Positions 4,376 to 33,409 of a DNA stretch of 33,409 bases are shown piece by piece; the first letter of the stretch is position 1, and each line of letters opens with the position of its first letter. This DNA is from a virus. Lineage: Duplodnaviria > Caudoviricetes. The notes beneath the pieces were generated by a model. That model was given only the letters and a program-made list of their open reading frames with translations. It had not been told where the DNA came from and did not search any database. The position numbers were made by a program, and so were the translations under genes. The stretch is from IMG/VR virus record IMGVR_UViG_3300031519_000113, positions 1 through 33,409 of that record; one strand, written 5' to 3'.

Positions 4376-6004
4376 TTAAAACTCCGTTTCGTTACCTACT
4401 GGACAACTGGTTTCTATCATTCTACCAGACTCCTTATCATAATACAGGTAACAGGCTAACCCTGTCAAGCCCACGAACCTATTTTTTAACACCCTTACTC
4501 CAGTTGTGTTACGTGTCTCAGGGTCTGCGTGTTGCTGATCTCGCTCTAAACCAATAACTATGTCGCTAAGTTGCGCGATTGCCGCTGAACCTCTGAGTTC
4601 TCCCAAGCTGATCTTACCGCCATCTTCATGTGCCTTTGAGCCGCTAGGTCTACGCAAGTGTGATACTAAAAATAGCCCTACACCTGTCTCTTGTACTAGC
4701 TTACGCAAATTGGTCATAATGCTGTCGATAGCTTTACGTTCGTCACCGTTGTCCTGATCGCTGACCACGATGCTGAGGTGATCCAAGATGATCCACTTGC
4801 AGTCCAAACCTTTAGCCATGTAACGTATACGGCCTAACAGGTTGTCCTCGCTCGTAGAACCCCAGTGATCAAACATATAGATACGTCCTGAGCCTAGAGT
4901 CCTGTCCCAATAACCCTTCTTCTCTTCCTGTGATACCGTCTTGTCGAGGTGAAGCTGCTTGTTAGCCTCTATGGACATGATGCCTAACGCTGTCTTAGGT
5001 ATGTCCTCCTCTAACGCTAGGATACCAATGTTGTCCTCCGTAGCACCTAGCAGATAATGCTCTAGTTCTCTGACTATCTGGGACTTGCCCATGCCTGAGC
5101 CTGACGTAATGGTGACTAACTCCTTAGGTCTAAAGCCATGGGTAAACTCATTAAGACAAGCCCAGGGATAGTCAATTGACTTCACGTTGGACTGCTTAAT
5201 AATCATGTCCCAAGTCTCATTACCTGCCACGATACCGTCAGGCTGATAGGTCTTAGCGTTCCACCACTCCTTGACAAAATCCTGCACCTTACGAGCCTTG
5301 AGCATGTCCCCTGCATCCTTCATGGGCAGTGTGACGTTCTTAGCCTTATTGGGGGTGAACAAGTCCAGTACTGACCTTGCGGCCTCTTGTCCTGCTTTAT
5401 CATTGTCAAAGCATATGATCACATTGTCGAACGTCTCAAGCCACTCAAGATTAGCCTTGATGTCTTTAGCCGCACTAGCCGCACCTGACCTAATGGATAC
5501 TACAGGCCACTTACCGTCAAACATCTCATTAACTGCCAGAGCGTCTGCCTCTCCTTCTACTACTGTTATGTACTTGCCGCCTGACTTGAATGCTTGCTGA
5601 CCAAAGAGTCCTGCATTGTCAAAGGAGCCTGTCGCATAAAATTGTTTGTTCTCTACTATACGTACCTTAGTCCCTGTAGCCACGCCTGTATCTTTATCGT
5701 GGTAAGGGTAGTGGTGCTTGGTAATTGTCCCATCAGTACCGTACTCAACTGTGACACCATACCGCTTGGCTGTCTCTTGGTTGATTCTACGATCAGGGAT
5801 TGCCGCTATTACACCTGTCATCTCTAATATCCTTGTAGGCTTATTGTTGCTTGCTAATTGACTGATCTGTCCGTTGCCATGTTCATAATGACCACAACCA
5901 CCCGAAAAACAGGTGGCGTGGCCGTCTGAATAACGAGCCAGATTGTCGGATGAACCACACGATGGGCATGGTTCATGTCTAACAAAGGTTGACTCGACTG
6001 ACAT
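4376..6004 (-). CDS. DNA primase-helicase (T7 gp4-like)
   Basis: N-terminal Zn finger CPSC...CFSGGC, TOPRIM VVEGEADALA and FDND, Walker A SGSGMGKS, ILDHL, SHLRR, LRGSAAIAQLSD, VLKNRF, acidic tail ending in F. Confidence 0.97.
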   Translation of the reverse strand: MSVESTFVRHEPCPSCGSSDNLARYSDGHATCFSGGCGHYEHGNGQISQLASNNKPTRILEMTGVIAAIPDRRINQETAKRYGVTVEYGTDGTITKHHYPYHDKDTGVATGTKVRIVENKQFYATGSFDNAGLFGQQAFKSGGKYITVVEGEADALAVNEMFDGKWPVVSIRSGAASAAKDIKANLEWLETFDNVIICFDNDKAGQEAARSVLDLFTPNKAKNVTLPMKDAGDMLKARKVQDFVKEWWNAKTYQPDGIVAGNETWDMIIKQSNVKSIDYPWACLNEFTHGFRPKELVTITSGSGMGKSQIVRELEHYLLGATEDNIGILALEEDIPKTALGIMSIEANKQLHLDKTVSQEEKKGYWDRTLGSGRIYMFDHWGSTSEDNLLGRIRYMAKGLDCKWIILDHLSIVVSDQDNGDERKAIDSIMTNLRKLVQETGVGLFLVSHLRRPSGSKAHEDGGKISLGELRGSAAIAQLSDIVIGLERDQQHADPETRNTTGVRVLKNRFVGLTGLACYLYYDKESGRMIETSCPVGNETEF

Positions 6005-6372
6005 TAAAACTCCTCACCATCGTCTTGCTCTGCTACCTCTAAGACCTTGATCTTGTTAAGGTAGGTGCTAGTGCCATGTACTGGATGCGGTGCGCCTGAT
6101 TCTGCCCACAGTAACCGTACCTTAGAGCCACGACCAATCCGACCAGTAAAAGGCATACCTTCTTTGTCATAGACAGGTACGTCATACTTGGTGCTGAACT
6201 TCCGTTGTTTGACTCCTTCATACTCTCGCATCTTAACGCCTAAGCCTGATAGACTACTAGCGGTGTCCTCATCGACACTAATTACGACTGAGTATTTACC
6301 TGTGGATTGACCCTGATACATCTCGTGGGTGTCTAGGTTCTCAAATGCTAATGTTCCTTCTACTACTGCCAT
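6004..6372 (-). CDS. single-stranded DNA-binding protein (compact, gp2.5-like)
   Basis: Lies just upstream of primase-helicase; GKYSV, IGRGSKVRL and YLNKIKVLE motifs; acidic C-terminus EQDDGEEF ending in Phe. Confidence 0.78.
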   Translation of the reverse strand: MAVVEGTLAFENLDTHEMYQGQSTGKYSVVISVDEDTASSLSGLGVKMREYEGVKQRKFSTKYDVPVYDKEGMPFTGRIGRGSKVRLLWAESGAPHPVHGTSTYLNKIKVLEVAEQDDGEEF

Positions 6373-6461
6373 AGTTACTTCCTCGCTTGTTATGATACTT
6401 AAGTATCGTTTGGTTAAACTTTAATTATAATCTTTAAAATATTCCTTTGCTTCTTAAGTAT

Positions 6462-6490
6462 ATTATACTGCTAATTGATTGACCTGTCAA
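6462..6490 (-). promoter_or_regulatory. perfect-consensus sigma70 promoter for the replication operon
   Basis: Minus strand TTGACA (6490-6485), 17 nt, TATAAT (6467-6462), about 90 nt upstream of the SSB start. Confidence 0.9.
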
Positions 6491-6665
6491 GCACCAATTC
6501 ATCTAATTTTATTTCAGTGCTTGAATCGTTCCACGCATCTTGCATTGCATCCATTGAATACCTAGCACAAACATTGCATAGGTCTAAATGGTGTCCGGTG
6601 TTGTGGTCAATACGCAGAAGCTCGTATTGGCTCAGAATAGTATCACATGCTTTGCATCTGCTCAT
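6471..6665 (-). CDS. small CxxC...CxxC zinc-binding early protein
   Basis: CKAC ... CNVC in a 64-aa ORF; SD GGAGGT upstream; ATGA overlap with previous gene. Confidence 0.7.
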   Translation of the reverse strand: MSRCKACDTILSQYELLRIDHNTGHHLDLCNVCARYSMDAMQDAWNDSSTEIKLDELVLDRSIN

Positions 6666-7889: not shown

Positions 7890-8044
7890 TATGCTACCTC
7901 CTCATCTGGTATATAAAATATGATCTCAACTCGCGTACCCTGTAGATCAACGCTTTCCTCACGGTAATTACACGCTACATTTTCAGGCATTTGTGAAAGC
8001 CAGTGTGTAAATGCGCTATGTTCGTATAAGTCGTCAGTTTTCAT
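7889..8044 (-). CDS. 51-aa acidic hypothetical early protein (not in ORF track)
   Basis: MKTDDLYEHSAFTHWLSQMPENVACNYREESVDLQGTRVEIIFYIPDEEVA*; SD GAGGTG; ATGA overlap. Confidence 0.68.
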   Translation of the reverse strand: MKTDDLYEHSAFTHWLSQMPENVACNYREESVDLQGTRVEIIFYIPDEEVA

Positions 8045-8283
8045 GCTGTCACCTCATTAGTTAGGTTATCAATAAAACCTTGTGCTACTGCTTCAACATC
8101 AGACAGGACACCTTTTAACCAGTTATTAACGTGTTTTGTCGTGGTGACACTATATTTGGTGCTAGTCTTAACATATCGACCGCTTGGAAGCATTGCGGCC
8201 ACTGGTGTCTCATAGCTAAAAAATACTACTGTACCGTTGATTAATAGTTCTGTTTGGTTGCTTCCTATTTGTTTCAGTTTCAT
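8041..8283 (-). CDS. first early gene; conserved phage hypothetical protein
   Basis: FFSYETPVAA...YSVTTTKHVNNWL is a motif I recognise from small phage early proteins of unknown function; SD CAGGAG. Confidence 0.75.
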   Translation of the reverse strand: MKLKQIGSNQTELLINGTVVFFSYETPVAAMLPSGRYVKTSTKYSVTTTKHVNNWLKGVLSDVEAVAQGFIDNLTNEVTA

Positions 8284-8331
8284 CGTGGTGTTACTCCTGT
8301 TATGGTTAGTCTTTGTTGTCTTGATGGGTTC

Positions 8332-8360
8332 AGTATAGCGCCTAGGCTAACAATGTACAA
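8332..8360 (-). promoter_or_regulatory. sigma70-type early promoter
   Basis: Minus strand TTGTAC (8360-8355), 17 nt, TATACT (8337-8332), about 50 nt upstream of the first early ATG. Confidence 0.75.
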
Positions 8361-8441
8361 TGATTTAAACGCATGACCTTAATAAACTATATGCATCTAG
8401 TGCATAACCTACATGCTACCTTCTATCATGCGCGTGCGCGT

Positions 8442-8458
8442 AGCAATAACCATGCCAA
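8442..8458 (-). promoter_or_regulatory. sigma54 (RpoN) -24/-12 box, copy 1
   Basis: Minus strand TTGGCATGGTTATTGCT (GG-N10-GC; consensus YTGGCACG-N4-TTGCW). Confidence 0.75.
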
Positions 8459-8477
8459 CTATTGTAGGGTTGTGTCA

Positions 8478-8494
8478 TGCAAGAGTCATGCCAA
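8478..8494 (-). promoter_or_regulatory. sigma54 (RpoN) -24/-12 box, copy 2
   Basis: Minus strand TTGGCATGACTCTTGCA. Confidence 0.75.
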
Positions 8495-8546
8495 TGTTTA
8501 CTAGTGTGTGCTATGGGTATCCACATGTACACTCACACTTGCCTCA

Positions 8547-8563
8547 TGCAATACCCGTGCCAA
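8547..8563 (-). promoter_or_regulatory. sigma54 (RpoN) -24/-12 box, copy 3 (perfect consensus)
   Basis: Minus strand TTGGCACGGGTATTGCA. Confidence 0.8.
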
Positions 8564-8579
8564 CTTAAGCACCATGCCC

Positions 8580-8684
8580 CGTGTATAACCTGTGTAGCCT
8601 GTGGATAACCTGTGTATAACTTATGTGTGCCTAAGCACAGGCCGCGTGTAGCCTGTGGATAACTTATGTAAAACCTGTGGATAA
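8580..8684 (-). promoter_or_regulatory. cluster of co-oriented DnaA boxes
   Basis: Plus strand TGTGGATAA (= TTATCCACA) at 8600-8608, 8654-8662 and 8676-8684; TGTGTATAA at 8611-8619; CGTGTATAA at 8580-8588; degenerate TATGTAAAA at 8665-8673. Confidence 0.8.
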
Positions 8685-8891
8685 CTTCGGGGGCGGGGGG
8701 GCGCGTGGCTGCTGTAGTATTGTTACTGTACCCTCCGGCATACAAAATAGTAGGAAATTAGGATTGACAACTGTATCCTCATGTGTACTGTAACCTTATG
8801 TAATACATAAGAAAACACAGGTCGCCCCTAGGGTTGACACAAGCAGTGCAAAGGGACATAAGAATAACTTAGATAATATAGTAAATAATGC

Positions 8892-8920
8892 TTGACTTCT
8901 GCTTAATAATATGCTATAAT
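8892..8920 (+). promoter_or_regulatory. sigma70 promoter with extended -10 for the packaging/structural arm
   Basis: TTGACT (8892-8897), 17 nt, TATAAT (8915-8920), with TG-N immediately upstream of the -10. Confidence 0.85.
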
Positions 8921-8928
8921 AACTAGTA

Positions 8929-9050
8929 TACTAAAGAGATAAAGATAACCAAGCGCCTTAAGGGTACTTAAGAAAACTTTAAGAATTAACTTTAAAGAAA
9001 TAATTAAAGTAAATACTAAAGCATACTTAAGTATACTTAAGATAACCAAG
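8929..9050. repeat. AT-rich array of short CTTAAG/CTAAAG/TTAAAG repeats
   Basis: About 9 copies of (C/T)T(T/A)AAG at roughly 10-13 nt spacing; bracketed by AAGATAACCAAG at 8942-8953 and 9039-9050. Confidence 0.7.
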
Positions 9051-9059
9051 GGGTATATT

Positions 9060-9452
9060 TTGAGTAACGAAAAGCAGCCTGTAAAAAAGAAAGGAAGACC
9101 CAAGAAGAAAGATATTGTGTCAAAAACAACAGGCAATAGGAATAAGGTAGGTCGTCCTAAAGGTGATGCTTCAATCATCAACGACTATAAAGCTAGGATG
9201 CTTGCTTCACCTAAAAGTAGGAAGGTATTAGATTCTATATTGTCAGCAGCATTGGACGATGACCATAAGAATCAAGCAGCAGCATGGAAGCTATGTATGG
9301 ATAGATTACTGCCTGTCAGTTACTTTGAGAAGGATAAGGCAACTGGCGGTAAGAGTGCAATTAATATATCAATTACTGGTGTTGGTGGAGAGACTACTAT
9401 CATCTCTGGTAACGAACAAGAACCCATTGAAGGGGACTACACAGATGTATAA
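9060..9452 (+). CDS. probable terminase small subunit
   Basis: First gene of the packaging arm, upstream of TerL; basic N-terminus with two GRPK motifs; TTG start with SD AAGGGG. Confidence 0.65.
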   Translation: MSNEKQPVKKKGRPKKKDIVSKTTGNRNKVGRPKGDASIINDYKARMLASPKSRKVLDSILSAALDDDHKNQAAAWKLCMDRLLPVSYFEKDKATGGKSAINISITGVGGETTIISGNEQEPIEGDYTDV

Positions 9453-9819
9453 TGTCAACAAAGATTTAGATTACTTTACTAGAGAAGAGTTTGCTTGTCA
9501 GTACACAGGCGAGAACGAGATTAAAGATACACTACTCTTAAAGTTAGATATGTTGCGTGGGCGCTGTGGGTTTCCTTTTGTCATTACTAGTGGTTATAGA
9601 TCAGAAGACCACCCCATTGAAAAGAAGAAGGAGAGAGCAGGAACTCATGCCCAAGGTATTGCAGCGGACATTAAAGTCAGCAACGGAACACAGCGTTATA
9701 AGATTGTTGCAGAAGCTATTAAGATGGGCTTCTCAGGAATTGGAGTTGCTTCTAACTTTGTGCATGTTGACATCCGCAGCTTGGACACTAACGAGTCTCC
9801 TGTAATGTGGACGTACTAG
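9445..9819 (+). CDS. peptidase M15A-family endolysin
   Basis: YFTREEFAC, ITSGYRS..H, H..G.AADI and FVHVDIR Zn-peptidase motifs; start at ATG 9445 with SD AAGGGG. Confidence 0.88.
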   Translation: MYNVNKDLDYFTREEFACQYTGENEIKDTLLLKLDMLRGRCGFPFVITSGYRSEDHPIEKKKERAGTHAQGIAADIKVSNGTQRYKIVAEAIKMGFSGIGVASNFVHVDIRSLDTNESPVMWTY

Positions 9820-11073
9820 TTGGCTGATTTAAAGGTTGAACTACTACCTTGGCAGCAAACAGTATACGAAGACAAGACACGCTTTAAGGTTATAGCAGCA
9901 GGTAGGCGTACAGGTAAGTCACGATTGGCTGCTTGGGCTTTAATACTTAACTGTTTGTCAGCTAAGAAGGGTCAGGTGTTTTACGTAGCGCCTACACAGG
10001 GACAGGCTAGGGACATTATGTGGCAGATGCTGCTAGAGCTAGGCAACCCTGTTATCTCTTCAAGTCATGTCAATAACTTACAGATCAAGTTTATTAATGG
10101 CGCACTCCTGACACTTAAGGGCGCGGACAGGCCGGAGACCATGCGTGGTGTCAGCCTTAAGTTCCTAGTCATGGACGAGTACGCAGATATGAAGCCAGAG
10201 GTGTGGGAGCAAATCCTACGTCCGGCTCTTGCGGATCAGAAGGGTGATGCAATGTTCATTGGTACGCCAATGGGACGTAACCACTTCTATGATCTATATT
10301 CATACGCAACCATTAGTGAAGATGAAACCTTTATAGGCTATCACTTTACAAGCTTTGATAACCCACTGCTAGACCCTGAAGAGATTAAAGCTGCTGAGAA
10401 GTCAATGTCAGCCTTTTCCTTCCGACAGGAGTTCATGGCATCCTTTGAGGCTCACGGTAGTGAACTGTTTAAGGAAGATGATGTCAAGTTTAGTGAAGAT
10501 GAACCTAAAGACGGTGAGTTTTACATTGCAGTGGATTTGGCAGGTTTTGCTGACGTACAGAAAGTTACTACTAAAACAAATAGACTTGACCAAACAGCTA
10601 TATCAGTCGTTAAAGCAGGTGTTAACGGTTGGTGGGTCGCTAATATCATACACGGACGTTGGGGCGTAGAAGAGACTGCCAGAAGAATCTTTGAAGCAGT
10701 TAGAGACTATGAGCCAGTAGCCGTAGGTATTGAGAAAGGTGCCTTAAAGAACGCTGTACATCCCTACCTAAACGATCAAATGAAGAAAAATCAACGGTTT
10801 TTTAGGATAGAAGAGCTTACACACGGTAATAAAAAGAAAACAGATAGAATTGTGTGGGCATTACAGGGTCGTTTTGAGCATGGCAACATAACATTAAACA
10901 AAGGAAAGTGGAACAGTCAGTTTTTAGACGAGTTATTCCAATTTCCTAACCATTTAGTCCACGATGACTTGATAGATTCATTAGCTTATATAGATCAACT
11001 TGCAAAAGTTTCCTATGCTTATGATTATGAAGACGAAGACTATGAATTCCTAGACAAATACGCAGGGTATTAA
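9820..11073 (+). CDS. terL: terminase large subunit
   Basis: LLPWQ adenine motif, Walker A AGRRTGKS, YVAPT..QA, Walker B LVMDEYA, GTP.G.NHFY, nuclease AVDLAG and HDDLIDSL; TTG start. Confidence 0.96.
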   Translation: MADLKVELLPWQQTVYEDKTRFKVIAAGRRTGKSRLAAWALILNCLSAKKGQVFYVAPTQGQARDIMWQMLLELGNPVISSSHVNNLQIKFINGALLTLKGADRPETMRGVSLKFLVMDEYADMKPEVWEQILRPALADQKGDAMFIGTPMGRNHFYDLYSYATISEDETFIGYHFTSFDNPLLDPEEIKAAEKSMSAFSFRQEFMASFEAHGSELFKEDDVKFSEDEPKDGEFYIAVDLAGFADVQKVTTKTNRLDQTAISVVKAGVNGWWVANIIHGRWGVEETARRIFEAVRDYEPVAVGIEKGALKNAVHPYLNDQMKKNQRFFRIEELTHGNKKKTDRIVWALQGRFEHGNITLNKGKWNSQFLDELFQFPNHLVHDDLIDSLAYIDQLAKVSYAYDYEDEDYEFLDKYAGY

Positions 11074-33292: not shown

Positions 33293-33293
33293 C

Positions 33294-33328
33294 AAAAAGC
33301 CCCTTAGGTCTCCCTAGGGGGCTTTTGT
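33294..33328. terminator. bidirectional rho-independent terminator between the converging arms
   Basis: AAAAAGCCCCTTAGG-TCTC-CCTAGGGGGCTTTTGT, with A-tract on the left and T-tract on the right. Confidence 0.88.
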
Positions 33329-33390
33329 ATACTACAGTATACATTGTAAACTATAAGAAACACTTTAACGTACATATAAGTGTTGGCTAA

Positions 33391-33409
33391 CTACACTATT
33401 TCGCATGTA
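33391..33409 (-). CDS. nrdJ: 3' end of probable ribonucleotide reductase gene entering from the right edge
   Basis: Reverse complement reads T ACA TGC GAA ATA GTG TAG = ...TCEIV*, like the C-terminal 'C.GG.CEIV' redox tail of class II RNRs. Only 5 codons are visible. Confidence 0.55.

Follow-up and report, generated by a model that had tools for sequence, protein, structure and literature searches.

The non-coding DNA that separates the early arm of the phage genome from the divergent late arm carries four consensus DnaA boxes, one degenerate DnaA box and three sigma-54 boxes, all in one orientation; in the same place, relatives carry a similar array, sites resembling those of other host proteins, a defective-looking sigma-70 site or nothing recognised. 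This cassette is a real, conserved but accessory feature of the family. Our preferred reading, to which we give slightly less than an even chance of being right, is that these exchangeable look-alike sites dock host proteins on the leading end of the phage DNA, likely in or just inside the terminal repeat.

The DNA analysed (the window, 33,409 nucleotides) comes from brine and seawater samples and represents nearly the whole genome of a podovirus-like phage that is uncultured. Its early, or replication, arm runs leftward from 8283 and encodes an SSB-like protein, a primase-helicase, a DNA polymerase, an exonuclease and an endonuclease; the first three bear out the statement of the initial annotation that the phage has replication proteins of its own. 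The late arm runs rightward from 9060 and encodes the endolysin, large terminase, portal, major head protein and tail. On the minus strand, an ORF scan placed the first early ORF (80 aa, PHROG 5643) at 8041..8283, with its Shine-Dalgarno sequence at 8294-8298. On the plus strand, a putative small terminase gene (9060..9452), named by its position and with no PHROG or Pfam match, and the endolysin gene precede that of the large terminase (9820-11073), and the portal gene comes next. The late arm has a sigma-70 promoter at 8892..8920 (plus strand) that agrees with the consensus at 11 of 12 positions and has an extended -10 element; RNA contigs from two studies start at 8928, which is a weak hint that this promoter works. 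RNA contigs from four runs, which belong to relatives and make up a small share, leave 8139-8908 uncovered; this is not evidence of silence. An AT-rich array of short palindromic repeats (8957..9048, plus strand; 25% GC in 8880-9060) stands before the putative small terminase gene. After the last late gene, a hairpin with a flanking A-run and T-run (33293-33409) is likely a two-way terminator, at which the arms would converge. No match to an RNA polymerase family was detected among the 38 ORFs scanned, nor any match to a transcription activator among the window ORFs scanned.

No close cultured relative was found in the phage collection searched, the best cultured matches being partial and at most about 41% for the terminase, no higher than 35% for the capsid, and 53.5% identity for the DNA polymerase. 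Among ten phages compared, the terminase matched those of T5 and Thalassa and, weakly, that of RIO-1, which does not settle the packaging mode. In viral contigs, searches with terminase patterns put the size of the family at about 2200 stored stretches. The Shine-Dalgarno sequence, promoters of the sigma-70 type and, in relatives, a motif of the LexA type, compared with motifs that we take to be typical of these bacteria, suggest a gamma- or betaproteobacterium as host. In genome bins, the phage matched four contigs from three Bacteroidota bins, all short, and a single long one from a betaproteobacterial bin. The latter bin was rejected as a link to the host, because at L084:3540-3610 a host gene is abruptly joined to a phage terS-like gene and the bin holds no close primase-helicase; the junction is probably an assembly chimera.

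Read along the minus strand, on which all the following elements lie unless stated otherwise, the cassette runs from a C-run through the DnaA boxes, the sigma-54 boxes and a sigma-70-like promoter to the Shine-Dalgarno sequence and the first ORF. Its outer flank is motif A (8728..8747), a family-wide sequence composed of a T-run, GTAT and a terminal GGGTAC, which is a candidate packaging or terminus landmark. The C-run (8689..8701) lies 26 bases past motif A. DnaA boxes 1 (8676..8684) and 2 (8654..8662, 22 bases past box 1) are perfect, box 3 (8611..8619) agrees with the consensus, box 4 (8600..8608, 11 bases past box 3) is again perfect, and a degenerate box with one mismatch to the consensus is found at 8580..8588. 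The sigma-54 boxes have their -24/-12 consensus elements at the correct spacing and lie at 8547..8562 (box 1, perfect to the consensus used), 8478..8493 (box 2) and 8442..8457 (box 3). Between boxes 1 and 2 is the second family flank, motif B (8516..8538), which includes, on the other strand, a DnaA box with one mismatch (8517-8525), and directly after box 3 comes a CG-rich tract of 16 alternating purines and pyrimidines (8427..8442). Closer to the first gene, two ATGC-N7-(G/T)CAT dyads (8360..8405) abut the -35 element of a putative early sigma-70 promoter (8332..8360), which has a 17-base spacer and the T at -7. These dyads are not enriched in the family (5 sites versus 3.0 in shuffles of the corresponding stretches). 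From the early -35 element, the nearest DnaA box is 240 bases away and the nearest sigma-54 box 82 bases.

The density of sites in 8330-8705 exceeded that in 5000 dinucleotide shuffles, with 4 DnaA boxes and 3 sigma-54 cores compared to maxima of 2 (reached in 13 shuffles) and 1 (reached in 51 shuffles), respectively. The cassette holds 4 of the 6 consensus DnaA boxes and 3 of the 5 sigma-54 cores in the whole window, the two remaining sigma-54 cores both falling within genes, and no DnaA or sigma-54 site was present in six further non-coding stretches that were tested elsewhere in the window. The order and co-orientation of the sites described in the initial annotation were thus confirmed. 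The early sigma-70 promoter that it also placed here is plausible at 8332-8360, but by itself is not above chance (7 promoter-like sites versus 4.2 +/- 2.6 in shuffles).

Among relatives, the content of the stretch that follows motif A and the C-run on the early side is variable, and we refer to this stretch as the slot. A set of 251 family loci was reduced to 160 and then to 140 representatives by dropping near-duplicates and loci with fewer than 290 bases after motif A; being members of one family, these are non-independent samples. Eighty-four of them, hereafter the unbiased relatives, had been picked by terminase or motif A, blind to slot content, and this subset excludes the window and the 56 representatives that had been retrieved with patterns for DnaA boxes or other slot elements. 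For parS, LexA, Fur, NtrC, Zur, DnaA and sigma-54 sites we used what we take to be the generally known consensus sequences. Motif A was present in 40 of 45 terL-selected loci with more than 1300 bases upstream, and a C-run lay within 70 bases of it in 106 of 120 motif A loci; motif B was matched in 98 of 140 relatives with a loose pattern and the CG tract in 51 of 140 with a strict one.

At least two DnaA boxes were found in 32 of the 84 unbiased relatives and sigma-54 boxes in 26. The two features tend to occur together (both in 19 of the 84; odds ratio 9.4, uncorrected for kinship), but 45 of the 84 have neither. The motifs, whose conservation the initial annotation had proposed to check, are conserved in many relatives. 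Of the same 84 slots, 9 have parS-like, 7 LexA-like, 4 Fur-like and 4 NtrC-like sites and 1 has a Zur-like site, and in 24 of them none of the recognised sites was found within 290 bases. Counts in the 140 slots compared with shuffles were 322 versus 2.7 for DnaA, 105 versus 0.3 for sigma-54, 13 versus 0 for parS, 16 versus 1.3 for LexA, 8 versus 0.7 for NtrC and 7 versus 0 for Fur, with no enrichment in these slots of FNR, CRP, IHF, matS, SlmA, NrdR or ArgR sites or of a LysR-like dyad. The arrangement is also regular: neighbouring DnaA boxes are spaced in helical phase in 167 of 200 cases and by exactly 11 bases in 80, the sites face the early genes in 284 of 322 DnaA boxes and 96 of 105 sigma-54 boxes, and the last DnaA box is followed by the first sigma-54 box after 20-21 bases in 28 of 48 cases. 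NtrC-like sites, which are absent from the window, occur in 6 of 140 relatives, three of which (L212, L234 and L260) pair them with a sigma-54 box. In four relatives without DnaA arrays (L223, L264, L268 and L291), the slot is filled by a perfect or near-perfect 14-base palindrome in up to four copies. On the other side of the frame, IHF-like sites were seen on the late side of motif A (corresponding to window positions around 8760-8830) in 49 of 110 relatives as a raw count.

Slot content changes readily with respect to the terminase. In a tree built from 37 terL rows (the window and 36 loci, from a total of 80), the distribution of the DnaA array needs 7 changes, 6 of which are forced by supported branches, and loci with near-identical terL can have entirely different slots, as in L064 (5 DnaA boxes and 2 sigma-54 boxes) versus L066 (none). 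Part of this exchange may be due to recombination in the 1.1 kb that separates terminase from slot; either way, both forms of the slot operate with the same packaging motor.

Many slots contain sigma-70-like sites in which a good -35 element and a spacer of 17 bases are combined with TA at -12/-11, and often with an extended -10, but in which the T at -7 is missing. This T is required for efficient promoter opening. It was missing in 55 of 59 sigma-70-like sites within slots, and present in 117 of 124 sites on the late side and in 5 of 5 gene-proximal sites; the DNA that follows the T-less sites in slots is GC-rich (62-79%). Sites of the T-less type numbered 30 in the 84 unbiased slots versus 1.5 in shuffles, and they were seen in 3 of the 26 relatives that have sigma-54 boxes versus 23 of the 58 that have none (p 0.011, uncorrected for kinship). 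In the 51 relatives with a CG tract, the element directly before the tract is a sigma-54 box in 18, a T-less sigma-70 site in 24 and unclassified in 9. Because sigma-54 holoenzyme remains closed without an activator, the feature common to both elements is, we infer from their sequences, a parked polymerase; a phage factor that makes the T-less sites fire is conceivable. The frequent replacement of an absent sigma-54 box by a T-less sigma-70 site argues for a parked RNA polymerase and not for a sponge specific for RpoN. The T-less element extends beyond the family, since about 130 viral stretches matched it at the 17-base spacer versus 21 at a control spacer of 20 bases. Of 98 distinct loci from this search (GC 27-74%), 81 have no motif A in the fetched flank, although some of these may belong to the family. 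A recurring layout in viral contigs (L509-L628) consists of a -35 element, 17 bases, a T-less -10 element, a CG-alternating tract and an AT-rich run. The same combination of a T-less sigma-70 site and a CG tract lies about 200 bases into the left repeat of the cultured phage RIO-1.

The initial annotation placed the cassette at the end of the genome, a position that is not visible in the sequence itself but is likely by analogy with cultured phages. The cassette lies between divergent arms with the C-run on the early strand, in agreement, by analogy only, with mapped left ends, where C-runs are found within about 30 bases of the end in T7, BA14, phiEap-1, RIO-1, VpV262 and LUZ24. The ends of contigs are spread to either side of motif A, an observation limited to contigs, and no terminus emerged from Logan contigs of four DNA runs, whose depths sum many strains, or from the ends of three long contigs. 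Two early-arm contigs (L087 and L179) share their first base, which lies in motif A around window position 8729, two being too few to count. A contig of 32.8 kb whose end is 100 bases past motif A does not begin with the repeat.

A BLAST search with the cassette returned 104 records, from which phiEap-1, ZK1, A7, P483, phiK7A1 and Thalassa were taken. As these phages were selected for their boxes and not for the position of the boxes, having boxes is uninformative in them. Both copies of the end repeat account for 10 of 11 perfect DnaA boxes in phiEap-1, 12 of 13 in ZK1, 8 of 8 in A7 and 10 of 10 in Thalassa. In the Vibrio phage Thalassa, the repeats also hold 4 of 4 strict sigma-54 boxes, and 22 bases are identical to the window across sigma-54 box 3 and the tract that follows it. 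In phiK7A1 one sigma-54 box lies between two pairs of DnaA boxes, and three others lie elsewhere. Seven phages (T5, VpV262, T7, BA14, Berlin, RIO-1 and LUZ24) were chosen because their ends are mapped. In T5, 6 of 6 perfect DnaA boxes are in the repeats. In Vibrio phage VpV262, 6 of 6 sigma-54 matches are at 173-346, just inside the 138-base repeat, with a pattern that was relaxed after viewing the sequence and that gave 1 match when reversed as a control. No consensus DnaA box was found at the left ends of T7, BA14, Berlin, RIO-1, LUZ24 and VpV262, and the first five have no sigma-54 box there either, so that 5 of the 7 chosen phages have neither. Within Berlinvirus, terminal-repeat DnaA boxes are present in P483 and A7 and absent from BA14 and Berlin. 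Microviruses also matched the cassette in the search, among them Microvirus mar31 (MZ089777.1), which has, in intergenic DNA at 1964-2074, 11 consensus DnaA boxes with an exact 11-base period beside a CG-alternating tract. Microvirus mar31 is a circular single-stranded DNA phage, in which such an array has no linear end to protect.

In the docking platform that we tentatively favour, abundant DNA-binding proteins of the host, according to what each variant of the slot can bind, would coat the leading DNA end, some few hundred bases long, before any phage gene is expressed. The physical left end would be near motif A and the C-run, DnaA would form a cooperative array on the 11-base-phased boxes, and RNA polymerase would park without firing, as activator-less sigma-54 holoenzyme in this phage and at a T-less sigma-70 site in relatives. 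Until the true early promoter at 8332-8360 fires, the resulting protein coat would hold the free end and shield it from nucleases of the host or from defences that sense DNA ends, and the selected trait would be occupancy of the end and not one particular ligand. This explanation draws on the exchange of unrelated ligands, the helical phasing of neighbouring DnaA boxes, the restriction of the sites to a single gap, their location at the ends of cultured phages and the alternation of sigma-54 boxes with T-less sigma-70 sites. It is weakened by the lack of recognised sites in 24 of the 84 relatives, by the five chosen phages without boxes, by the array on a circular microvirus and by the survey of 499 phage genomes that, in the part of the report available, describes no positional skew of DnaA sites (PMC9437464). 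Headful packaging would abolish a fixed end, and the partial terminase matches leave the packaging mode unfixed, which further weakens it. Of the two roles offered in the initial annotation, host-factor decoy and landing cassette, the latter therefore fits better, on account of ligand exchange, the sigma-54/sigma-70 swap and, by analogy, the terminal position.

Titration of DnaA is established for datA of E. coli, a cluster of DnaA boxes outside an origin that needs an IHF site. The window's cassette resembles datA as a cluster outside an origin, but it adds polymerase sites, and none of the 140 slots has an IHF-like site. The corresponding explanation, that the amplified cassette is a protein-free sponge that titrates DnaA, blocking host re-initiation, and also RpoN, LexA, Fur or ParB, with variants that reprogram the host differently, is in our opinion unlikely. 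The boxes are phased and of the high-affinity type, the microvirus array is an example of DnaA arrays on multicopy replicons without ends, and engineered decoy sites titrate regulators in E. coli, according to the available text of PMC7826281. A sponge, though, could occupy any gap, and the other gaps of the window are empty. Its DnaA- and RpoN-specific form is weakened by the 45 relatives that have neither kind of site and by the exchange of the sigma-54 box for a T-less sigma-70 site, as titration of sigma-70 polymerase would hit the phage's own promoters and be costly to a phage that depends on it. Somewhat less probable still is that the sites sense the state of the host, tuning early transcription to cell cycle, nitrogen, iron or SOS status in the way of CtrA sites. 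CtrA clusters in terminal repeats do bind and regulate, as far as the accessible part of the report goes (PMC9437464), and a sigma-54-like promoter is described in the part available for phage YuA (PMC10914365). Most sigma-54 boxes of the family face the early genes, three relatives combine them with NtrC-like sites, and LexA-like boxes in relatives abut a -35 element. Nevertheless, that -35 element belongs to a site without the -7 T, the DnaA box nearest to the early -35 is 240 bases from it, the window has neither an NtrC-like site nor an activator match in its scanned ORFs, and parS is not a promoter element.

In T7, packaging involves a paused T7 polymerase at the concatemer junction, for which a stalled host polymerase or DnaA array could be a substitute, as a mark of the repeat boundary that serves terminase or the duplication of the repeat. 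We regard this as improbable. The phage has no RNA polymerase match among its 38 ORFs, motif A and the C-run vary far less than the slot does, IHF-like sites are found on the late side of motif A in the 49 relatives mentioned above, and RIO-1 has its T-less site and CG tract close inside its repeat; but T7-like phages with their own polymerase also have DnaA arrays in the repeat, and slot contents differ between genomes with near-identical terminase. The least probable of the explanations considered, and to us a very remote one, is that DnaA opens the duplex at a replication origin for the phage primase-helicase. Origins of the oriC type have co-oriented, phased boxes, as here with 11-base phasing, and a phage without its own polymerase to open an origin by transcription might use them. 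Such origins, however, also have an AT-rich unwinding element or DnaA-trios 3' of the boxes; here the DNA on that side is 48% GC with no trinucleotide repeat tract, and the AT-rich block is on the 5' side. A DnaA array is moreover absent from 52 of the 84 relatives, being kept by only 32, and the origins of T5 are near the genome centre, away from its DnaA boxes, in the available portion of 10.1101/866236. A GC-skew minimum around 8000-8500 was rejected as evidence for an origin because it coincides with the switch of gene strand, and PMC11512268, which in the part available offers an Ori-Finder prediction only, was not used as evidence. These explanations and the docking of host proteins are not all mutually exclusive.

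The closest published parallel to the docking platform is the injection-stop region of T5. From an in silico analysis, Davison described the terminal repeat of T5-like phages as containing eight DnaA boxes and proposed that membrane-bound DnaA stops injection, in the available part of 10.1101/866236; the mechanism of this stop remains poorly understood, according to the part available of PMC13250531. In both cases DnaA boxes lie in a non-coding part, for T5 of the terminal repeat, where they are proposed to hold entering DNA (10.1101/866236, available part), and the T5 region has LexA-like and Fur-like boxes, as do relatives of the window phage. In T5 (9150-10300 and 5900-6500), LexA-like boxes adjoin the DnaA boxes, and Fur-like boxes are present within the region of the injection stop. 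On the other hand, the boxes of T5 are paired at a distance of 3 bases within inverted repeats that lie some 6-9.5 kb into a repeat of 10 kb, and they need A1/A2, with injection in two steps, on the same partial source; in the window phage, whose podovirus-like genome measures 33 kb, the boxes are co-oriented and mostly separated by 2 bases. The paired inverted layout of T5 is likewise not that of the family, in which boxes predominantly point one way and the 11-base spacing recurs. A1/A2 had no match among the 38 ORFs of the window, many of which match nothing. T5 has no strict sigma-54 box, and sigma-54 is not mentioned in the available part of 10.1101/866236.

Clusters of CtrA sites in alphaproteobacterial phages (Mascolo et al. 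2022; PMC9437464, as far as available) are another parallel, as dense, high-scoring sites for a host regulator lie in terminal repeats or divergent gaps and are gained and lost among relatives, with binding and regulation shown. They involve one regulator and promoter sites, whereas the window family has several unrelated ligands in one slot, mostly off working promoters, and the distances of the DnaA and sigma-54 boxes from the early -35 are not those of CtrA-type overlap or adjacency. Phage phi29, as described in the accessible part of the same report, is similarly a lytic phage with sites for a host regulator (Spo0A) that uses the host ParB-type protein Spo0J in spore entrapment; this use is tied to sporulation, and parS is absent from the window and found only in relatives. 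The Pseudomonas phage YuA shares with the window a -24/-12 element in a lytic phage (PMC10914365, available part), but there it is a single working promoter, unlike the three tandem boxes of the window with no evident enhancer or activator. The initial annotation knew of no description of its combined architecture. DnaA boxes in a terminal repeat, proposed as an injection handle, had in fact been published for T5 (10.1101/866236, in the part available), and the combination was not found: a search of the literature, covering titles and the starts of abstracts and few subscription journals, revealed no DnaA and sigma-54 sites together at phage ends, no exchangeable slot and no T-less polymerase sites. 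The window adds to this the exchange of ligands in a single slot throughout the family, together with polymerase sites that apparently do not fire.

It is possible, though we would put it below the docking reading itself, that many unrelated lytic phages build terminal non-coding docking modules from interchangeable host-protein sites and non-firing polymerase sites, the injection stop of T5 being one case. The T-less sigma-70 site with its CG tract may be an unrecognised polymerase-parking element. The exchangeable slot constitutes a natural experiment in which no single ligand is required, and the comparison of P483 and A7 with BA14 and Berlin makes the long-open question of the T5 injection stop testable in small genomes. 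If true, the docking of host proteins would be a protein-free way of anchoring or shielding entering DNA, and thus a sequence-only counter-defence or entry aid that is invisible to gene-based annotation.
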